Virus record (IMG/VR): IMGVR_UViG_2531839193_000010
Reading direction: 5' to 3' (one strand)
Origin: a virus
Taxonomy: Duplodnaviria; Heunggongvirae; Uroviricota; Caudoviricetes
DNA: 46,809 nt
Part shown: piece by piece, positions 1,791 through 45,681 of the stretch
How the letters are laid out: each line of letters starts with the position of its first letter
How positions within the stretch are numbered: the first letter of the stretch is position 1
Made by a program: the position numbers and the translations under genes
Notes under the pieces: model-generated
The model's database searches: none
The model's input: the letters and a program-made list of their open reading frames with translations, nothing else
Told to the model about the DNA's origin: nothing

Positions 1791-4700
1791 ATGCAATTCA
1801 TTACCAACGGCCCTGATATTCCTGATGAGCTTTTGCAGGCGCACGAGGAAGGGCGCGTTGTGTTCTTCTGTGGAGCAGGCATTTCCTACCCTGCTGGTTT
1901 ACCTGGTTTCAAAGGGTTGGTAGAACTAATTTACCAGAGGAACGGAACAACACTTTCAGAAATTGAGCGTGAGGTTTTCGAGCGTGGGCAATTTGACGGC
2001 ACATTAGATTTGCTGGAACGGCGCTTACCAGGGCAGCGTATAGCCGTCCGACGCGCGTTGGAAAAAGCCCTTAAGCCAAAGCTCCGTCGTAGGGGCGCTA
2101 TTGATACTCAGGCGGCGCTGTTACGTTTAGCCCGTAGCCGCGAGGGTGCCCTTCGATTGGTCACTACCAACTTTGACCGTCTCTTTCATGTGGCAGCTAA
2201 ACGTACAGGCCAGGCTTTTCAGGCCTATGTAGCGCCGATGCTGCCAATTCCAAAAAACAGCCGCTGGGATGGACTTGTATACCTGCATGGGCTGTTACCG
2301 GAAAAGGCGGATGATACTGCCCTGAATCGTCTGGTTGTTACCAGCGGTGACTTTGGCTTGGCTTATCTCACTGAGCGTTGGGCAGCTCGCTTTGTGAGTG
2401 AGTTATTTCGTAACTATGTGGTCTGCTTCGTTGGCTACAGCATCAACGACCCGGTACTGCGCTACATGATGGATGCGCTTGCAGCAGATCGGAGGCTCGG
2501 TGAAGTCACACCACAAGTATGGGCACTGGGGGAGTGTGAGCCGGGGCAGGAGCACCGGAAAGCCATCGAGTGGGAGGCCAAAGGGGTCACTCCTATCCTT
2601 TACACCGTACCGGCGGGCTCCACTGATCATTCAGTGCTGCATCAAACGTTGCACGCTTGGGCAGATACTTATCGAGATGGTATACAGGGCAAAGAGGCTA
2701 TAGTCGTCAAACATGCTCTGGCCCGCCCGCAGGACAGCACTCGTCAGGACGATTTCGTTGGTCGGATGTTGTGGGCCTTGTCAGATAAATCAGGTTTACC
2801 AGCAAAACGCTTTGCGGAACTCAATCCTGCACCGCCGCTGGATTGGTTATTGAAAGCTTTCTCGGACGAACGATTTAAATACAGCGATCTGCCACGCTTT
2901 TGTGTATCTCCGCATGTCGAAATTGACCCGAAACTCCGATTCAGTCTGGTTCAGCGTCCTGCGCCCTATGAGCTGGCCCCGCAGATGTCGCTGGTTTCTG
3001 GATGTGTCAGTGCTAGCAAATGGGATGACGTAATGTCCCATATAGCCCGTTGGCTAGTTCGTTATCTGGGCGACCCTAGGTTGATCATATGGATTGCTGA
3101 ACGCGGCGGACAAATACACGACCGTTGGATGTTTCTGATTGAGAGCGAACTAGATCGCTTAGCAGCACTGATGCGGGAGCGTAAGACTTCTGAGTTAGAT
3201 GAAATTCTCTTGCATTCCCCCCTGGCTATTCCTGGTCCACCTATGTCTACTTTATGGCGGCTTCTGCTTAGTGGTCGTGTGAAATCGCCATTGCAGAACC
3301 TGGATTTGTATCGTTGGCAAAACCGCTTAAAGAATGAAGGCTTGACGACTACATTGCGCTTGGAGTTACGCGAGTTGCTTTCTCCCAAGGTTATGTTGAG
3401 GCGGCCGTTTCGCTATAGTGAAGACGATTCGAGCAGCACTGATGAACCCTTGCGAATCAAGCAATTGGTGGATTGGGAGCTGGTGCTGACTGCTGATTAC
3501 GTACGTTCAACCCTGTTCGACCTTGCTGACGAGTCATGGAAATCGTCCTTGCCATACCTGTTGGAAGATTTTCAGCAGTTGTTGCGTGATGCACTGGACT
3601 TGTTGCGGGAGTTGGGAGAGTCCGACGATCGTCACGACCGCTCGCATTGGGATTTGCCGTCCATCACTCCGCACTGGCAGAACCGGGGGTTCCGCGATTG
3701 GGTGAGCCTGATTGAATTACTTCGGGATTCATGGTTAGCCGTTCGATCCAAAGACAGCGATCAGGCCACGCGCATTGCTCAGAATTGGTTTGAGTTGCCA
3801 TATCCCACCTTCAAACGTCTGGCACTGTTTGCCGCAAGCCAAGACAACTGCATACCACCTGAGCGGTGGGTTAATTGGTTGTTAGAGGACGGTTCATGGT
3901 GGTTGTGGGCCACGGATACTAGGCGAGAGGTATTCAGACTGTTTGTTTTGCAGGGACGACATCTGACAGGAATTGCACAAGAGCGTCTGGAAACTGCTAT
4001 CTTGGCAGGGCCTCCGCGCGAGATGTACGAGGATAATTTGGAAGCAGACAGGTGGCATTATTTGGTGGCTCATTCCGTCTGGTTGTGTCTAGCGAAGCTC
4101 AGGGGAGCGGGCCTTGTTTTGGGAGAGTCTGCGGCTACACGTTTGACGGAAATATCCACAGCATACCCAAAATGGCAACTGGCAACCAACGAGCGTGATG
4201 AATTCTCTCACTGGATGAGCGGAACCGGTGATCCAGGCTTCGAGGAGAGTATAGATGTCGACATTGCGCCCCGTAAGTGGCAGGAATTAGTGCAATGGCT
4301 CGCAAAGCCTATGCCAGAAAGACTGCCTTTCTATGAGGACACTTGGAGTGATGTTTGCCGTACGCGCTTTTTTCACAGTCTGTATGCGTTAAGTAAACTA
4401 TCACAAGATGATGTGTGGCCTGTTGGTCGGTGGCGTGAAGCTCTGCAGACTTGGGCTGAACCAGGGATGATTTTGCGTTCGTGGCGGTACGCCGCACCGT
4501 TGGTGCTTGACATGCCTGACGCAGTACTTCAGGAGATTTCCCACGCTGTCACTTGGTGGATGGAGGAGGCTTCGAAGACCATCCTCTGCCACGAGGAGAT
4601 TCTACTGGCCCTTTGTCGTCGGGTTCTGATGATAGAAACAAGCCCAGAGTCTAGCACCATTCGAAACGGAATTGAGACCTATGATCCTGTTTCTACGGCG

Positions 4701-5618
4701 ATCAATCATCCCATTGGGCATGTCACGCAATCACTGATCACCCTATGGTTCAAACAGAACCCGAATGACAATGATTTGCTTCCTGTTGAATTGAAAACAC
4801 TTTTCACCAAATTGTGTAATGTACAGATAGAGCTATTCCGCCATGGTCGGGTGTTGCTGGGGTCGCGGCTGATCGCATTTTTTCGCGTAGATCGACCTTG
4901 GACCGAACAGTATCTATTGCCCTTGTTTGCTTGGAGTAATCCCGTCGAAGCAAAAGCTGTGTGGGAAGGCTTCCTCTGGTCGCCACGCCTGTATGAACCG
5001 TTGCTGATAGCTTTCAAGTCAGATTTTTTGGAGAGCGCCAATCACTATTCTGATCTTGGCGAGCACCGGCAGCAATTCGCTACTTTCCTGACTTATGCAG
5101 CTCTGGGCCCTACCGAGGGATATACCGTGGAGGAGTTCCGAACGGCAATTAGTGCTCTTCCACAAGAAGGTCTGGAGGTAGCCGCGCAGGCGTTATACCA
5201 GGCACTTGAAGGTGCGGGCGATCAGCGCGAGGAGTATTGGAAAAATCGTGTCCAGCCATTTTGGCAACAGGTTTGGCCAAAGTCCCGCAACTTGGCCACC
5301 CCACGCATATCCGAATCGTTGACTCGTATGGTGATTGCTGCCCGAGGTGAATTTCCGGCGGCTTTGGCAGTGGTGCAGGACTGGCTGCAACCGCTCGAAC
5401 ACCTTAGCTACGACGTTCGCCTTTTGCTAGAATCAGATATTTGCAGCCGATATCCTGCGGACGCTCTATCCCTGCTGAATGCCGTGATTGCCGAACAACA
5501 CTGGGGGCCTCGAGAGTTGGGGCAATGCTTGCTTCAAATTGTTCAAGCTGCTCCACAACTGGAGCAAGATGTTCGTTATCAGCGATTAAATGAATATTCT
5601 CGAAGGCGCAGCGTGTGA
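1791..5618 (+). CDS. Large SIR2-like (sirtuin/NADase) domain protein with ~950-aa alpha-helical Trp/Leu-rich C-terminal region; candidate single-gene anti-phage defence protein (DSR-like architecture)
   Basis: 1275-aa intact ORF with strong RBS. N-terminus carries sirtuin-type motifs: CGAGISYPAGLPGFKG (Gly-rich NAD loop, residues 27-42), TTNFD (Asn127) and YLHG (His166). Sits between int and xis, a typical prophage cargo position. Confidence 0.8.
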   Translation: MQFITNGPDIPDELLQAHEEGRVVFFCGAGISYPAGLPGFKGLVELIYQRNGTTLSEIEREVFERGQFDGTLDLLERRLPGQRIAVRRALEKALKPKLRRRGAIDTQAALLRLARSREGALRLVTTNFDRLFHVAAKRTGQAFQAYVAPMLPIPKNSRWDGLVYLHGLLPEKADDTALNRLVVTSGDFGLAYLTERWAARFVSELFRNYVVCFVGYSINDPVLRYMMDALAADRRLGEVTPQVWALGECEPGQEHRKAIEWEAKGVTPILYTVPAGSTDHSVLHQTLHAWADTYRDGIQGKEAIVVKHALARPQDSTRQDDFVGRMLWALSDKSGLPAKRFAELNPAPPLDWLLKAFSDERFKYSDLPRFCVSPHVEIDPKLRFSLVQRPAPYELAPQMSLVSGCVSASKWDDVMSHIARWLVRYLGDPRLIIWIAERGGQIHDRWMFLIESELDRLAALMRERKTSELDEILLHSPLAIPGPPMSTLWRLLLSGRVKSPLQNLDLYRWQNRLKNEGLTTTLRLELRELLSPKVMLRRPFRYSEDDSSSTDEPLRIKQLVDWELVLTADYVRSTLFDLADESWKSSLPYLLEDFQQLLRDALDLLRELGESDDRHDRSHWDLPSITPHWQNRGFRDWVSLIELLRDSWLAVRSKDSDQATRIAQNWFELPYPTFKRLALFAASQDNCIPPERWVNWLLEDGSWWLWATDTRREVFRLFVLQGRHLTGIAQERLETAILAGPPREMYEDNLEADRWHYLVAHSVWLCLAKLRGAGLVLGESAATRLTEISTAYPKWQLATNERDEFSHWMSGTGDPGFEESIDVDIAPRKWQELVQWLAKPMPERLPFYEDTWSDVCRTRFFHSLYALSKLSQDDVWPVGRWREALQTWAEPGMILRSWRYAAPLVLDMPDAVLQEISHAVTWWMEEASKTILCHEEILLALCRRVLMIETSPESSTIRNGIETYDPVSTAINHPIGHVTQSLITLWFKQNPNDNDLLPVELKTLFTKLCNVQIELFRHGRVLLGSRLIAFFRVDRPWTEQYLLPLFAWSNPVEAKAVWEGFLWSPRLYEPLLIAFKSDFLESANHYSDLGEHRQQFATFLTYAALGPTEGYTVEEFRTAISALPQEGLEVAAQALYQALEGAGDQREEYWKNRVQPFWQQVWPKSRNLATPRISESLTRMVIAARGEFPAALAVVQDWLQPLEHLSYDVRLLLESDICSRYPADALSLLNAVIAEQHWGPRELGQCLLQIVQAAPQLEQDVRYQRLNEYSRRRSV

Positions 5619-19278: not shown

Positions 19279-19494
19279 ATGAAATCAATGGATAAGTTAA
19301 CAACAGGTATCGCCTATGGCACATCGGCTGGTAATGCTGGTTTCTGGGCATTGCAGTTACTCGATAAAGTAACTCCGTCACAGTGGGCTGCAATCGGTGT
19401 GCTGGGTAGTCTGGTATTTGGCTTGCTGACGTACCTGACAAACCTTTATTTCAAGATTAAAGAAGACAAGCGTAAGGCTGCGAGAGGTGAATAA
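19279..19494 (+). CDS. Holin (phage-21 S-type, class II pinholin-like)
   Basis: 71-aa ORF closely resembling the phage 21 holin as recalled ([10 protein letters not shown]...[11 protein letters not shown]...[11 protein letters not shown]); overlaps the endolysin start. Confidence 0.8.
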
Positions 19495-19991
19495 TGCCTC
19501 CATCATTACGAAAAGCTGTTGCAGCTGCTATTGGTGGCGGGGCTATTGCTATAGCATCTGTGCTAATCACTGGCCCAAGTGGTAACGATGGTCTGGAGGG
19601 TGTGAGACATAATCCTTACAAAGACATAGTTGGTGTATGGACTGTATGTTACGGGCATACAGGAAAAGACATCATTCCCGGTAAAACGTATACCGAAGCA
19701 GAGTGCAAAGCCCTCCTGAATAAAGACCTTGCCACTGTCGTCAGACAAATTAACCCGTACATCAAAGTCGATATACCGGAAACAACGCGCGGCGCTCTTT
19801 ACTCATTCGTTTACAACGTGGGTGCTGGCAATTTCAGAACATCGACGCTTCTTCGCAAAATAAACCAGAGCGATATCAAAGGCGCATGTGATCAGCTACG
19901 TCGCTGGACATATGCTGGCGGTAAGCAATGGAAAGGTCTCATGACTCGTCGTGAGATTGAGCGTGAAATCTGTTTGTGGGGTCAGCAATGA
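19494..19991 (+). CDS. SAR endolysin (lysozyme, phage-21 R-type)
   Basis: 165-aa ORF with N-terminal signal-anchor-release segment ([18 protein letters not shown]) and lysozyme catalytic region. Confidence 0.85.
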
Positions 19992-20448
19992 ACAGAGTAA
20001 CCGCGATTATCTCCGCTCTGGTTATCTGCATTATCGTCTGCCTGTCATGGGCTGTTAATCATTACCGTGATAACGCCATTACCTACAAAGCCCAGCGCGA
20101 CAAAAATGCCAAAGAACTGAAGCTGGCGAACGCGGCAATTACTGACATGCAGATGCGTCAGCGTGATGTTGCTGCGCTCGATGCAAAATACACGAAGGAG
20201 TTAGCTGATGCGAAAGCTGAAAATGATGCTCTGCGTGATGATGTTGCCGCTGGTCGTCGTCGGTTGCACATCAAAGCAGTCTGTCAGTCAGTGCGTGAAG
20301 CCACCACCGCCTCCGGCGTGGATAATGCAGCCTCCCCCGACTGGCAGACACCGCTGAACGGGATTATTTCACCCTCAGAGAGAGGCTGATCACGATGCAA
20401 AAACAACTGGAAGGAACCCAGAAGTATATTAATGAGCAGTGCAGATAG
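19976..20448 (+). pseudogene. Rz-like i-spanin with -1 nt frameshift; embedded Rz1-like o-spanin (ATG 20208, lipobox VVGC) also affected
   Basis: The ORF reads Rz-like until AASP, then continues in what is normally the Rz1 frame ([17 protein letters not shown]). The Rz1-frame ORF (20208-20357) loses that C-terminus. One added C in the C5 run at 20334-20338 restores both. Confidence 0.55.
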
Positions 20449-20479: not shown

Positions 20480-20773
20480 TTATTGTGAGCAATACACACG
20501 CGCTTCCAGCGGAGTATAAATGCCTAAAGTAATAAAACCGAGCAATCCATTTACGAATGTTTGCTGGGTTTCTGTTTTAACAACATTTTCTGCGCCGCCA
20601 CAAATTTTGGCTGCATCAACAGTTTTCTCCTGTCCAATTCCCGAAACGAAGAAGTGATGGGTGATGGTTTCCTTTGGTGTTACTGCTGTCGGTTTGTTTC
20701 CAACAGTAAACGTCTGTTGAGCACATCCTGTAATAAGCATTGCCAGAGCGGCAGAAAACAACATTTTTTTCAT
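20480..20773 (-). CDS. bor: Bor lipoprotein (serum-resistance lipoprotein)
   Basis: Start at the ATG at 20771-20773 (MKKMLFSAALAMLITGC... lipobox); near-identical to lambda Bor as recalled. Confidence 0.8.
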   Translation of the reverse strand: MKKMLFSAALAMLITGCAQQTFTVGNKPTAVTPKETITHHFFVSGIGQEKTVDAAKICGGAENVVKTETQQTFVNGLLGFITLGIYTPLEARVYCSQ

Positions 20774-20910
20774 CTTATTATCCTGCATTGTTAAAAACGG
20801 CAGAATCCTATGTGACAACTAGACTGGCCCCCTGAATCTCCAGACAACCAGTATCACTTAAATAAGTGATAGTCTTAATACTAGTTTTTAGACTAGTCAT
20901 TGGAGTACAG

Positions 20911-21276
20911 ATGATTGATGTCTTAGGGCCGGAGAAACGCAGACGGCGTACCACACAGGAAAAGATCGCAATTGTTCAGCAGAGCTTTGAACCGGGGATG
21001 ACGGTCTCCCTCGTTGCCCGGCAACATGGTGTAGCAGCCAGCCAGTTATTTCTCTGGCGTAAGCAATACCAGGAAGGAAGTCTTACTGCTGTCGCCGCCG
21101 GAGAACAGGTTGTTCCTGCCTCTGAACTTGCTGCCGCCATGAAGCAGATTAAAGAACTCCAGCGCCTGCTCGGCAAGAAAACGATGGAAAATGAACTCCT
21201 CAAAGAAGCCGTTGAATATGGACGGACAAAAAAGTGGATAGCGCACGCGCCCTTATTGCCCGGGGATGGGGAGTAA
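20911..21276 (+). CDS. insC: IS2 OrfA (InsC) transposase HTH subunit
   Basis: 121 aa, [26 protein letters not shown]...; A6G slippery motif at 21228-21234 near the 3' end for OrfAB frameshifting. Confidence 0.85.
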
Positions 21277-22139
21277 GCTTAGTCAGCCGTTGTCTCCGGG
21301 TGTCGCGTGCGCAGTTGCACGTCATTCTCAGACGAACCGATGACTGGATGGATGGCCGCCGCAGTCGTCACACTGATGATACGGATGTGCTTCTCCGTAT
21401 ACACCATGTTATCGGAGAGCTGCCCACGTATGGTTATCGTCGGGTATGGGCGCTGCTTCGCAGACAGGCAGAACTTGATGGTATGCCTGCGATCAATGCC
21501 AAACGTGTTTACCGGATCATGCGCCAGAATGCGCTGTTGCTTGAGCGAAAACCTGCTGTACCGCCATCGAAACGGGCACATACAGGCAGAGTGGCCGTGA
21601 AAGAAAGCAATCAGCGATGGTGCTCTGACGGGTTCGAGTTCTGCTGTGATAACGGAGAGAGACTGCGTGTCACGTTCGCGCTGGACTGCTGTGATCGTGA
21701 GGCACTGCACTGGGCGGTGACTACCGGCGGCTTCAACAGTGAAACAGTACAGGACGTCATGCTGGGAGCGGTGGAACGCCGCTTCGGCAACGATCTTCCG
21801 TCGTCTCCAGTGGAGTGGCTGACGGATAATGGTTCATGCTACCGGGCTAATGAAACACGCCAGTTCGCCCGGATGTTGGGACTTGAACCGAAGAACACGG
21901 CGGTGCGGAGTCCGGAGAGTAACGGAATAGCAGAGAGCTTCGTGAAAACGATAAAGCGTGACTACATCAGTATCATGCCCAAACCAGACGGGTTAACGGC
22001 AGCAAAGAACCTTGCAGAGGCGTTCGAGCATTATAACGAATGGCATCCGCATAGTGCGCTGGGTTATCGCTCGCCACGGGAATATCTGCGGCAGCGGGCT
22101 TGTAATGGGTTAAGTGATAACAGATGTCTGGAAATATAG
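21234..22139 (+). CDS. insD: IS2 OrfB (InsD) transposase catalytic subunit (expressed as OrfAB fusion by -1 frameshift)
   Basis: 301-aa ORF with integrase-core DDE region; matches IS2 InsD as recalled. Confidence 0.85.
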
Positions 22140-22965
22140 GGGCAAATCCAACAACAATTAAACGATAGTTAAATGGATTGATGAAAATTAAAACTATATA
22201 GGTGTACGGTCAGACTATTGGAGGTAGTCTGGATTTGAATGTCAGTGTGTTGTCGGCATTATGGCAATGCAATTTGGATAAAGCGGGGATTAAAAAGATA
22301 GAGGCGAGCCGGTCAGGTAGAAATGAATCAGGCTCAAAGTGAAGCGGAAAAGGTCTGTGGCACAAACTGATGCTGCCATAATTACAGCCTGATGACTTAT
22401 GGAATGAAACATGTTGAACCTCCTTAATTGATGTTATTCGAGTGAGGAAGGCATTCTGTCCTCCTATACTGTCCAGTAAATCAAACAGGAAGCTTGTCTC
22501 ACGTGTGAGACAAGCCTCTCCATTAGCGAGTTGTATTGATCACAACTCTTCAAAGAATTCATTACTGGGTAGATGAAAATAGTTTCACGATGAATGGAGG
22601 AGGCTATGTTGGTGGCTTCTTCATTGGAGTACATATGCCCCCACGAACCCCAAAAACCTGCCGTGTTCGCGGCTACCGCAATACCACCACAGATCCGTCA
22701 GGCTATTGCAAAAGCCACAAAAGCGAAGGCTGGAAGCAATACAAGCCGGGCCAGTCCTGTCATCAGCGCGGTTATGGTTCGCGGGGTTGTCCCTCATGCT
22801 CGCCAGTCCTGTGCGGGGGGGGGAAGAAACAGGACACTCACACAGATTTTTGTGGGTCGATGCTATTCCTTTCTGGATTATCCCGATGCCATTCATGCAA
22901 GGGCTGTATCAGACGTTCGTCATGGCTGTCAGGCTGACGGGTCCTCCCGGTGGGGGGGCCTGCCA

Positions 22966-23153: not shown

Positions 23154-23648
23154 ATGGATCGAGAGTTAAAAAATCTGACGCTTAATATCAGTCAACTGGC
23201 GGCACTGTCAGGTGTACATCGCCAGACTGCTGCGGCAAGGCTGCAAAATCTACCCGTTGCAGGGGGGCATGAAAGCAACCTCAAGCTTTATCGGGTGGTT
23301 GATATTGTGTCGGCATTTCTGGCATTACCACCGCCGGTTGCAGAAGGCGAAATGGACGCGCATGAGCGCAAAGCCTGGTATCAGTCTGAACGTGAGCGTC
23401 TTAAGTTCGAACAGGAAACGGCACAACTCATTCCGGCCAGTGATGTCAGACGGGAGTTTGCCATCTGGGCAAAAGCGGTCGTGCAGGTGCTGGAGACATT
23501 ACCGGATATTCTTGAACGTGACTGCGGTCTGCAGCCTGCCGCTGTGAGCCGTGTTCAGTCCATTATTGATGATCTGCGCGATCAGATAGCCCTGCGGGTG
23601 ACTGAAGCAGGTGCGGATGATGAGGAGGAATTACAGCAGGAGGAGTAA
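23154..23648 (+). CDS. Terminase small subunit (Nu1-like, N-terminal HTH)
   Basis: 164-aa ORF just downstream of the cos-like site; HTH segment LNISQLAALSGVHRQTAAARL; acidic C-terminus; stop/start overlap with the large subunit. Confidence 0.7.
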   Translation: MDRELKNLTLNISQLAALSGVHRQTAAARLQNLPVAGGHESNLKLYRVVDIVSAFLALPPPVAEGEMDAHERKAWYQSERERLKFEQETAQLIPASDVRREFAIWAKAVVQVLETLPDILERDCGLQPAAVSRVQSIIDDLRDQIALRVTEAGADDEEELQQEE

Positions 23649-29439: not shown

Positions 29440-29524
29440 ACGTCGCAGACAACAACTCTGATGGCCCGTAAGGGCTTTTTTGTACCTGAAATCAGCCCCT
29501 GAACGGGGCTGTGTGGAGACAGTT

Positions 29525-32314: not shown

Positions 32315-32644
32315 ATGCAGTTTGTCATGCGGCTTGCCCGGGAGTTCCGGCGGGCAGACTGGCGGCGGATGCTGTCGGAAATGTCGGCCACTGAGCTTGG
32401 TGAGTGGGGCGATTATTTCCGGATGCAGAGCTTCAGTGATGTGTGGATGGATGCGCAGTTTGCCTCGCTGAAGGCATTGATCGTGAGAATGGTGTCCGGT
32501 AGCAGTGATGCTGCGGTGGCTGATTTCAGCCTTTTACCGGAAGAGAACGGGATACCGGAGCGAACGGACGAAGAACTGATGCATCTTGGGGAAGGTATTT
32601 CCGGAGGTGTGCGTTATGGACCAGATAGCCAACCTGGTCATTGA
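32315..32644 (+). CDS. Tail assembly protein gpT-like region, expressed as G-T fusion by programmed -1 frameshift
   Basis: -1 frame relative to G is open from 32282; candidate slippery heptamer GGAAAAG at 32294-32300 just before the G stop (lambda uses GGGAAAG). Confidence 0.6.
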   Translation: MQFVMRLAREFRRADWRRMLSEMSATELGEWGDYFRMQSFSDVWMDAQFASLKALIVRMVSGSSDAAVADFSLLPEENGIPERTDEELMHLGEGISGGVRYGPDSQPGH

Positions 32645-35600
32645 TTTGGGGATTGATGCGGCAGAGTTTAAAAATGAAATTCCCCGTATCAAAAACCTTC
32701 TGAATGGTGCAGCCAGCGATGCAGAACGGTCTTCTGCCCGTATGCAGCGTTTTATGGAGCGTCAGACTCAGGCCGCCCGGCAGACAATGCAGGCGGCTTC
32801 TTCGGCTGCAACAGCCGCATCCGTCCATGCGCAGACGGTGGAGAAGAGCGCACAGGCTCATGAACGCATGGCCCGCGAGGTGGAGCAAACCCGCCAGCGT
32901 ATGGAGGCACTGAGCCAGAAAATGCGCGAGGAACAGGCGCAGGCCATGGCTCTGGCGGAGACTCAGGATAAAGCGGCTGCCGCGTTTTATCGTCAGATTG
33001 ACAGTGTGAAACAGGCCAGTGCGGGGCTGCAGGAATTACAGCGTATTCAGCAGCAGATCCGACAGGCCAGAAACAGTGGCGGGATTGGTCAGCAGGATTA
33101 TCTGGCGCTGATTTCTGAGGTTACGGCGAAAACCGGTGTTCTTACGCAGGCTGAGGCAGAGGCTACCCGACAGAAAGTGGCGTTTATCCGTCAGCTTAAA
33201 GAGCAGGCAACCCGCCAGAATCTTTCTTCTTCTGAGTTGCTTCGTGCTAAGGCTGCCCAGCTGGGGGTAAGCAGTGCTGCAGAAGTGTATATCCGCAAAA
33301 TGGAGCAGGCAGGAAAAGCCACGCATTCGCTGGGTCTGAAAAGTGCAGCGGCCCGCCAGGAGATAGGCGTTCTGATAGGTGAACTGGCTCGCGGCAATTT
33401 AGGTGCGCTGAGGGGATCCGGGATAACGCTGGCTAACCGTGCCGGATGGATAGACACACTGATGTCACCGAAAGGCATGATGCTGGGCGGGGTTATTGGC
33501 GGTATTGCCGCGGCCGTCTATGGTCTGGGTAAAGCCTGGTATGATGGTCAGAAGGAGGGGGAAGAATTTAACCGCCAGTTGTCGCTGACGGGGCATTATG
33601 CCGGAGTCACTGCCGGGCAGCTGTGGACGCTCAGTCGTGCTATTTCCGGGAATGGTATTACGCAACATGCTGCAGCCGGTGCGCTGGCTCAGGTGGTGGG
33701 GAGTGGTGCATTTCGTGGAAACGATATCGGTATGGTGGCGAGAGCTGCCGCACAGATGGAGCGATCGGTTGGCCAGTCGGTCAGCGATACCATAAATCAG
33801 TTTAAGCGGCTGAAGGATGATCCTGTAAATGCCGCGAAGGCTCTGGACAATGAGCTGCATTTTCTTACTGCCACTCAGCTTGAGCAGATACGCGTCCTTG
33901 GGGAACAGGGGCGGTCCAGTGATGCGGCACGGATAGCCATGTCTGCACTGGCAGAGGAAACCGGTCGGCGTACTGCGGATATTGATAATAACCTCAATGC
34001 GCTGGGCAGTACGCTGAAGTATCTGTCTGATTTATGGAGTCGTTTCTGGGATGCGGCCATGAATATTGGTCGTGAAGACTCGCTGGATGAACAGATTTCC
34101 GCTTTACAGGAGAAAGTGTCGCGGGCGAAAAGACTCCCCTGGACGGCATCATCTTCTCAGGTTGAGTACGATCAGCAGCGTCTTAACGAGCTTCAGGAGA
34201 AAAAACGCCAGAAGGATTTGCAGGATGCAAAAGAGCAGGCAGAGCGGAATTATCAGGAGCAACAGAAACGCCGTAATGCTGAAAATGCTGCACTGAACCG
34301 GATGAATGAAACGGAAGCAGCACGACATCAGCGTGAAATTGCGCGTATTAATTCCATGCAGTACGCCGATCAGGCTGTCAGGGATGCGGCGATACAACGT
34401 GAAAATGAACGTTACGAGAAAGCCCTGGCATCCGGTAAGAAAAAACACGCGAACCCCGTAATGATGAGGCCACCCGGTTATTGCTGCAGTACAGTCAGCA
34501 ACAGGCACAGGTGGAAGGACAGATTGCTGCTGCCAGACAGTCAGCAGGCATTGCCACGGAAAGGATGACAGAAGCGCATAAACAGCTTCTGGCTCTGCAG
34601 CAGCGCATCAGCGACCTGGACGGGAAAAAACTGACGGCAGATGAAAAGAGTGTGCTGGCCCGTAAAGATGAACTGATTCAGGCACTGACGCTGCTGGATG
34701 TAAAACAGCAGGAGCTTCAGAAACAGACGGCACTCAACGAGCTGAAGAAAAAAACAATTCAGCTGACCAGTCAACTGGCTGAAGAAGAGCGCGCTCAGCG
34801 TCAGCAACATGACCTGGATATCGCCACGGTGGGTATGGGTGATCAGCAGCGGCAGCGATATCAGGTACAACTGAGTCTTCGCCAGAAATACCAGCAACAG
34901 CTGGAGCAGTTGAGGCGGGATAGTGAGCAGAAAGGAACATATAACACGGATGACTACAGAAAGGCCGAGCAGGCGCTGACGGAGAGCCTGAACCGACAAC
35001 TGAATGAGAATCGCCGTTACTGGCAACAGCTTGAAGTTGTGCAGGGTAACTGGAAAAACGGAGTCCTGCGTGCATTTCAGGATTTTACCGTGGATGCAGA
35101 TAATACGGCAGGAACAGCAGAACAGGTGTTCTCGTCAGCCTTCAGCAACATGGGAAATGGCCTGGCAACTTTTGTCACTACCGGCAAACTCAATTTCAAA
35201 TCCTTCACCTCTTCTGTGCTGTCAGATATGGCGAAAATCCTGGCGCAGGCAACCATGATGAAATCGATAAAAGGGATTGGCAGTGTACTGGGATTTGATC
35301 TCAGCAGCCTTTCCCTGAATGCCAATGGGGGGATTTATCAGTCTGCTGATTTGAGTCGTTACAGTGGCACGGTGGTTAACCGTCCGACGTTTTTTGCTTT
35401 TGCAAAAGGCGCGGGTGTGATGGGGGAAGCGGGACCTGAAGCCATTCTGCCACTGCGTCGTGGTGCTGACGGTAAGCTGGGGGTTGTGGCGGATATTGGT
35501 GGTTCAGGTATGGCGATGTTTGCCCCGCAGTACAACATCGAGATCAATAACGATGGCACGAACGGGCAGATAGGTCCGGCTGCCCTGAAGGTGGTTTATG

Positions 35601-35680
35601 ACCTCGGGAAAAAAGCGGCAGCGGACTTTATGCAACAGCAGGCCCGTGATGGTGGTCGGTTAAGTGGAGCATATCGGTAA
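32616..35680 (+). pseudogene. Tail tape measure protein (gpH-like), interrupted by a 1-nt frameshift in a homopolymer
   Basis: Two consecutive coiled-coil-rich ORFs (32586-34568 and 34481-35680); adding one A to the A6 run at 34440-34445 gives a continuous reading (...ALASGKKKTREPRNDEATRLLLQYSQQQ...). Confidence 0.8.
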
Positions 35681-45200: not shown

Positions 45201-45681
45201 ATCGCACACCCACAGCGCCAGCGCATCCAGTACGGATTTGGGGACGAAAACCACATCATCGTTTGATTACGGCACTAAATCCACGAATAACACTGGTGCG
45301 CATACCCATAGTTTAAGTGGCAGCACGAATGCAGCTGGTAATCACAGCCATAGAGATGGCCGTCGATTTAACCCCAGTGTTTTTAAAGATACTTATCAAT
45401 ATGGTTATACAAGCTCAGGTCAAAATACCTGGGGTGTACAAGGCTCAGTAGGTATGTCTACGGGGGCGTTAGCTAATACCAGTACAGATGGTAATCATAG
45501 CCACTCACTGTCCGGCACAGCAGCATCTGCAGGTGCACACGCGCATACTGTCGGTATTGGTGCTCATACGCACTCTGTTGCGATTGGCTCACATGGACAC
45601 ACCATCACCGTTAACGCTGCTGGTAACGCGGAAAACACCGTCAAAAACATCGCATTTAACTATATTGTGAGGCTTGCATAA
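42283..45681 (+). CDS. stf: Side tail fibre protein (Stf-like) with Ala/Ser/Thr-rich repeat collar and His-rich C-terminal domain
   Basis: 1132-aa ORF; N-terminus like lambdoid Stf ([26 protein letters not shown]...), repeated ...AAKTSETNA... units, C-terminal HxH repeats ([43 protein letters not shown]). Confidence 0.85.

Follow-up and report, generated by a model that had tools for sequence, protein, structure and literature searches.

The question raised by this locus is whether a prophage has lost both subunits of its spanin through the deletion of a single base or whether that base is missing only from its assembled sequence. The DNA analyzed here (the window) is the whole of a 46,809-nucleotide stretch, IMG/VR virus record IMGVR_UViG_2531839193_000010, in which a short C run lies in the overlap of the spanin genes Rz and Rz1. 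From the length of this run among relatives, the origin of the window, and the kinds of difference that set it apart, we consider it most likely that the missing C is a draft assembly error and not a mutation.

The lysis cassette and its reading frames

The lysis cassette is of the phage 21 type, with the order holin, endolysin, Rz with embedded Rz1, and then a convergent bor gene. Its first gene (19279..19494, plus strand), in the position of S21 in phage 21, encodes a 71-aa class II holin of the phage 21 type (pinholin; Pfam PF04971 Phage_holin_2_1, E = 7.8e-34). The second gene (19494..19991, plus strand) encodes an intact 165-aa endolysin, a lysozyme of the RrrD/R21 type (PF00959, E = 3.1e-47) that is annotated in relatives as rrrD or SAR endolysin. 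Holin and endolysin lie directly upstream of Rz in one cassette, which is the location expected for a member of the spanin family. On the other side, an intact bor/iss lipoprotein gene is encoded on the minus strand (20480..20776; PF06291, E = 6.6e-31, and annotation in relatives). The original prediction had the spanin feature begin at 19976, which is only the upstream GTG of a mechanically called open reading frame (ORF); the remainder of its extent stands, and we place the Rz start at ATG 19988, which overlaps the endolysin stop in the sequence ATGA and corresponds to the phage 21 annotation.

Read directly from the window, the C run at 20334..20338 (plus strand) has five bases (C5), and its relatives have six (C6). 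Translation of 19988-20448 yields Rz residues 1-117 (...GVDNAASP), at which point the Rz frame slips at the C5 run into the Rz1 frame, continues for the last 16 residues of Rz1, and stops at 20387-20389. The Rz-frame ORF as sequenced (19988..20389, plus strand) therefore encodes 133 aa. The predicted switch after VDNAASP into the Rz1 frame and its C terminus was reproduced by the translation and by Pfam, since residues 29-117 of the product match positions 1-90 of 126 of the Phage_lysis profile PF03245 and are followed by positions 24-40 of 41 of the Rz1 profile PF06085; as it stands, the sequence does not encode a full-length i-spanin. The Rz1-frame ORF that begins at ATG 20208 (20208..20357, plus strand; 49 aa) retains the signal sequence and lipobox (LVVVGC, Cys20) and the residues to P44, and then ends in TGRHR*, which agrees with the predicted loss of the Rz1 C terminus. 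This product matches PF06085 only at positions 1-25 of 41 and is not a full o-spanin.

The frame entered at 20338 encodes the normal Rz C terminus (36 residues, ending at 20448). Adding one C to the run restores both genes, as had been proposed: a 153-aa Rz (19988..20448, plus strand) that matches PF03245 at positions 1-126 of 126 (E = 2.6e-54) and a 60-aa Rz1 (20208..20389, plus strand) that matches PF06085 at positions 1-40 of 41 (E = 2.9e-20). Relative to Rz, the Rz1 start at ATG 20208 is in the +1 frame, and the restored Rz1 ends at 20389, inside Rz (end at 20448), so that the o-spanin gene is wholly embedded.

The cassette closely resembles that of phage 21 (OL657228, CPT_21_69 and CPT_21_70), which has the same order of pinholin, SAR-type endolysin, Rz with embedded Rz1, and convergent bor, the same ATGA overlap of endolysin stop and Rz start, and 98.5% DNA identity over 19976-20448. 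Where the window has C5, phage 21 carries a C6 run and encodes complete proteins of 153 and 60 aa. When the window was aligned with phage 21 and Escherichia coli 118UI, the difference fell within the 20334-20338 run (C5 versus C6). Lambda encodes the same kind of embedded two-component spanin (NC_001416, 45966-46427 and 46186-46368), most of which is ∼98.5% identical at the DNA level, with a C run in the overlap as in the window, but its holin and endolysin are of a different type and the reference lambda has C6. The domain map and loss-of-function alleles of lambda Rz/Rz1 are published (PMC5295617): nonsense alleles of Rz are lysis defective as far down as codon 152, and so is Rz1 W46X (Cahill et al., PMC5295617). 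As sequenced in the window, Rz does not extend through C152 and Rz1 does not extend to W46 or beyond; with C6, both do.

Near-identical relatives and run lengths private to the window

Positions 9988-30389 of the window are 100% identical to contig AKNC01000015.1 of the 2012 draft of Shigella sonnei 3226-85, and the fused 133-aa protein is GenBank EIQ49051.1 from this strain, which falls in lineage II (PMC5447701). A search for the exact junction of bor with an IS2 element returned one contig, IMG/VR UViG_2526164617_000021 (the sister contig), which we assign to the same lineage as the window because it has the same junction. The small terminase protein (23154-23648) was too widespread to lead to other S. 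sonnei genomes, with the IS2 context present in 0 of 10 places looked up. The sister contig aligned to the window in three pieces (23,086 bases) with no substitutions and four differences, all of them in homopolymer length. At 10248-10253, 20334-20338 (the Rz run), 22815-22823, and 29476-29481, the window has T6, C5, G9, and T6, and the sister contig has T7, C6, G8, and T7, respectively.

The NCTC genome UGZB01000001.1 also contains this prophage, but its IS2 site is empty. Relative to the window, it has no substitution across the 10,831 bases left of that site and 4 in the 9,634 bases on its right, for an overall difference of 4 substitutions and 4 run lengths in 20,465 bases. It carries T7, C6 (Rz), and T7 where the window has T6, C5, and T6. 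At 22952-22958, the window has G7 and this genome G6.

Three contractions are private to the window assembly (T7 to T6 in a repressor gene, C6 to C5 in Rz, and T7 to T6 in a terminator), and no private substitution was found in >20 kb in the comparison with the sister contig and the NCTC relative. Both the confinement of C5 to the window, with C6 in the sister contig and the NCTC relative, and its occurrence alongside other run-length differences with few or no substitutions are marks of an artifact. Two of the three contractions break conserved genes, namely Rz/Rz1 and a LexA/S24-family phage repressor (10244-10753, minus strand), which is cut to 169 aa by the T6 run at 10248-10253 and has T7 and 208 aa in the sister contig, the NCTC relative, and the relative L009. 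We suggest that the repressor T6 is probably the same kind of artifact as the Rz frameshift, because it too is private to this assembly. The third, T6 at 29476-29481, lies in a noncoding hairpin and T run after the capsid gene. Among seven-base runs, 4 of 10 were one base shorter in the window than in two more distant relatives; among six-base runs, the figure was 1 of 45, and no run of ≥5 bases was longer in the window. At the left end of the window, the run at 7-12 is C6, versus C7 in L009.

Private run contractions without substitutions are the pattern expected from homopolymer under-calling and not from mutation. Together with the C6 runs of the near-identical relatives, this pattern makes an assembly error likely and does not support carrying the one-base loss over from the sequence to the organism. 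A six-base C run would have been called as five, probably because the sequencing chemistry in use in 2012 under-called homopolymers. The organism would then have an intact and ordinary two-component spanin of the phage 21/lambda type. In it, Rz would be an inner-membrane subunit of 153 aa, with a transmembrane helix at the N terminus and coiled coils in the periplasm, and Rz1 would be an outer-membrane lipoprotein of 60 aa, embedded in Rz in the +1 frame.

The five-base run in public records

C6 is the run length of phage 21, of the reference lambda, and of most prophage copies. Among 5,426 complete E. coli genomes, exact C5 was present in 39 records versus 3460 with C6 (counted as the exact 65-mer or 66-mer centered on the run, a count that does not cover C7). 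These genomes hold ∼9,800 copies of rzpD/rzoD, most of them C6. IMG/VR viral contigs gave 5 with C5, >110 with C6, and 1 with C7. At the protein level, the restored 153-aa Rz occurs exactly on 190 contigs under the name RzpD, S. sonnei included, and the restored Rz1 exactly matches RzoD proteins on at least 1,000 contigs; the fused 133-aa protein was found on 5. By these sequence counts, C5 as the native form is excluded, and the original prediction is not overturned by a C5 arrangement conserved in related phages.

The C5 records group by sequencing project and not by lineage, and 17 of the 39 E. coli records fall in seven single-project groups of two to five strains. The E. coli rzpD/rzoD genes (DLP12 type) are of the same gene family as the window's Rz/Rz1, and their C5 allele, present for example in E. 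coli B1.H1.18 and UID2309220041, occurs on several prophage backgrounds other than that of the window. B1.H1.18 carries a second contraction (C7 to C6) 1.3 kb upstream of its C5 run, and PGAP labels C5-type rzpD copies “frameshifted.” For the C5-bearing phages PhiR30_1 and PhiR63_2, we found no paper on the PhiR series that describes their sequencing. Two short Logan contigs from the neighboring runs SRR12299065 and SRR12298972 encode a 133-aa fused protein identical to that of the window on a DNA background that is 95 to 98% identical to it. These contigs possibly derive from accurate short reads, in which case they may represent real C5 alleles in another strain.

Several C5 records are of a different nature. 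Contigs of the nanopore DNA control strand (DCS) consist of lambda 45042-48488 with the Sam7 change at 45352, and all have C5. When GTDB representative genomes were scanned for the C5 39-mer, the only hits were two contigs of ∼3.5 kb, both of them this control strand. Three of the five IMG/VR C5 contigs (L113, L131, and L132) are chimeras in which lambda 45042-48488 is joined to other DNA, and all three come from one metagenome (IMG 3300049043). The control strand has been deposited as a 3.5-kb “plasmid” of Arcanobacterium hippocoleae (CP136411.1) and as a Flavobacterium contig (NZ_JBPPZT010000002.1), and it forms the sole divergent part of OR974322.1, “Lambda isolate from chicken cloacal swabs”; all three have C5. 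The published DCS length is 3560 nt, including 65 and 48 artificial nt (bioRxiv 10.1101/2023.08.05.552089). Subtracting these leaves 3447 nt, which equals lambda 45042-48488 with C6 and suggests that the true control strand is C6.

The DCS contigs resemble the window in the C5 call at the Rz run and in having the same kind of 133-aa fusion. Unlike the window, they are lambda DNA with Sam7 and were produced by a technology later than the 2012 draft. They show that this run can be miscalled, and not how it was miscalled in the window. A good part of the public C5 calls is technical, given the control-strand records, the single-project groups, and the second contraction in B1.H1.18. We count this recurrence as precedent for an artifact.

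Weighing a real deletion, and what it would mean

Evidence against an artifact comes from prophage damage that looks real and from C5 on other backgrounds, including the two Logan contigs. An IS2 element of 1331 bp (20820..22150, plus strand) with insC and insD ORFs is inserted between bor and the terminase genes, that is, between the lysis cassette and terminase, ∼45 bp upstream of the bor start. Its junctions were read directly, and it is flanked by a 5-bp target duplication (ACAAC, 20815-20819 and 22151-22155). The site is empty in the NCTC relative and filled in the sister contig. IS2 may exert a polar effect on late transcription of the head and tail genes. Further, the tail tape-measure gene is split at an A6 run (34440-34445) into ORFs 32586-34568 and 34481-35680; in thirty IMG/VR relatives and in L010, the run is A7 and the protein 1021 aa long, and A6 recurs in the sister contig, which shares the IS2 junction. 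Being common to the sister contig, the tape-measure frameshift is, as judged from these sequences, probably real and inherited in the lineage. Since the IS2 insertion and this frameshift are both shared, the prophage is probably defective in this lineage.

This background lends some substance to a real deletion, in which strain 3226-85 would have lost one C of the C6 run in the Rz/Rz1 overlap by replication slippage, as a further decay step of an already defective prophage. C6 to C5 is a plausible spontaneous slippage event, and a single slip would inactivate both subunits because the frame of Rz1 is +1 relative to that of Rz, leaving Rz without residues 118-153 (the second coiled coil and C-terminal domain) and Rz1 without residues 45-60. 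The shared IS2 insertion and tape-measure frameshift are likely real, purifying selection on the lysis genes may be gone, and a spanin mutation would be tolerated because the prophage is probably already defective. The C5 alleles on several other backgrounds and the rzpD copies called frameshifted by PGAP point the same way. We nevertheless regard a real deletion as unlikely. C5 is private to this assembly among near-identical relatives, and it is accompanied by two further private run contractions and by no private substitution in >20 kb; three slips within one 47-kb prophage without substitutions would need an indel-only mutator. In mismatch-repair mutators, transitions rise along with indels. 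A mutator of this kind is therefore an unlikely source of private indels that come without private substitutions.

It is less probable still, and in our view quite improbable, that the C6 run in the Rz/Rz1 overlap is a true slippage hotspot that has produced repeated, independent double spanin knockouts in natural prophages. Were it so, slippage there would repeatedly turn prophages into lysis-defective, domesticated ones, and the S. sonnei 3226-85 copy would be one real instance. We see almost no chance that C5 is functional, whether it is taken as native and conserved, as a site of programmed frameshifting, or as a phase-variable on/off switch for the spanin. Only the recurrence of the allele in unrelated records favors such a role. 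Against it stand the 39-to-3460 ratio of the E. coli records, the dominance of C6 in IMG/VR even before the three control-strand chimeras are set aside from the 5 C5 contigs, and the grouping of C5 records by project and not lineage. Moreover, the fused product lacks residues required in lambda genetics (PMC5295617), and the intact C6 form needs no recoding. We rejected programmed frameshifting and phase variation on frequency, C5 being rare relative to C6.

Should the base truly be missing, the predicted defect in the outer-membrane step of lysis would follow, as the losses would begin at residue 118 in Rz and at residue 45 in Rz1. By analogy with lambda, both subunits would be inactive, because the lost residues lie within those required there, and lysis would halt at the outer membrane (PMC5295617). 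The lysis-defective lambda alleles thus supply a functional prediction: upon induction, holin and endolysin would be active, the outer membrane would not be disrupted, and cells would become spherical. This would be an ordinary loss of function in an already disabled prophage, with a textbook phenotype. There is nothing new in the locus either way, whether its embedded Rz/Rz1 spanin is a standard one or has become an ordinary pseudogene.

The chief value of assembly error as the preferred reading is as a caution. One miscalled base in two overlapping genes gives rise to two apparent pseudogenes and to a chimeric “Rz-Rz1 fusion” protein that is already in the protein databases (EIQ49051.1). Because public records repeat the C5 call, in several cases through control-strand contamination, assembly-based counts of “spanin-defective” prophages will be inflated. 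Elsewhere in the prophage, the left end encodes a tyrosine integrase (385-1608), followed by a gene for a 1275-aa protein (1791-5618) that is annotated in relatives as the anti-phage defense sirtuin Dsr1.
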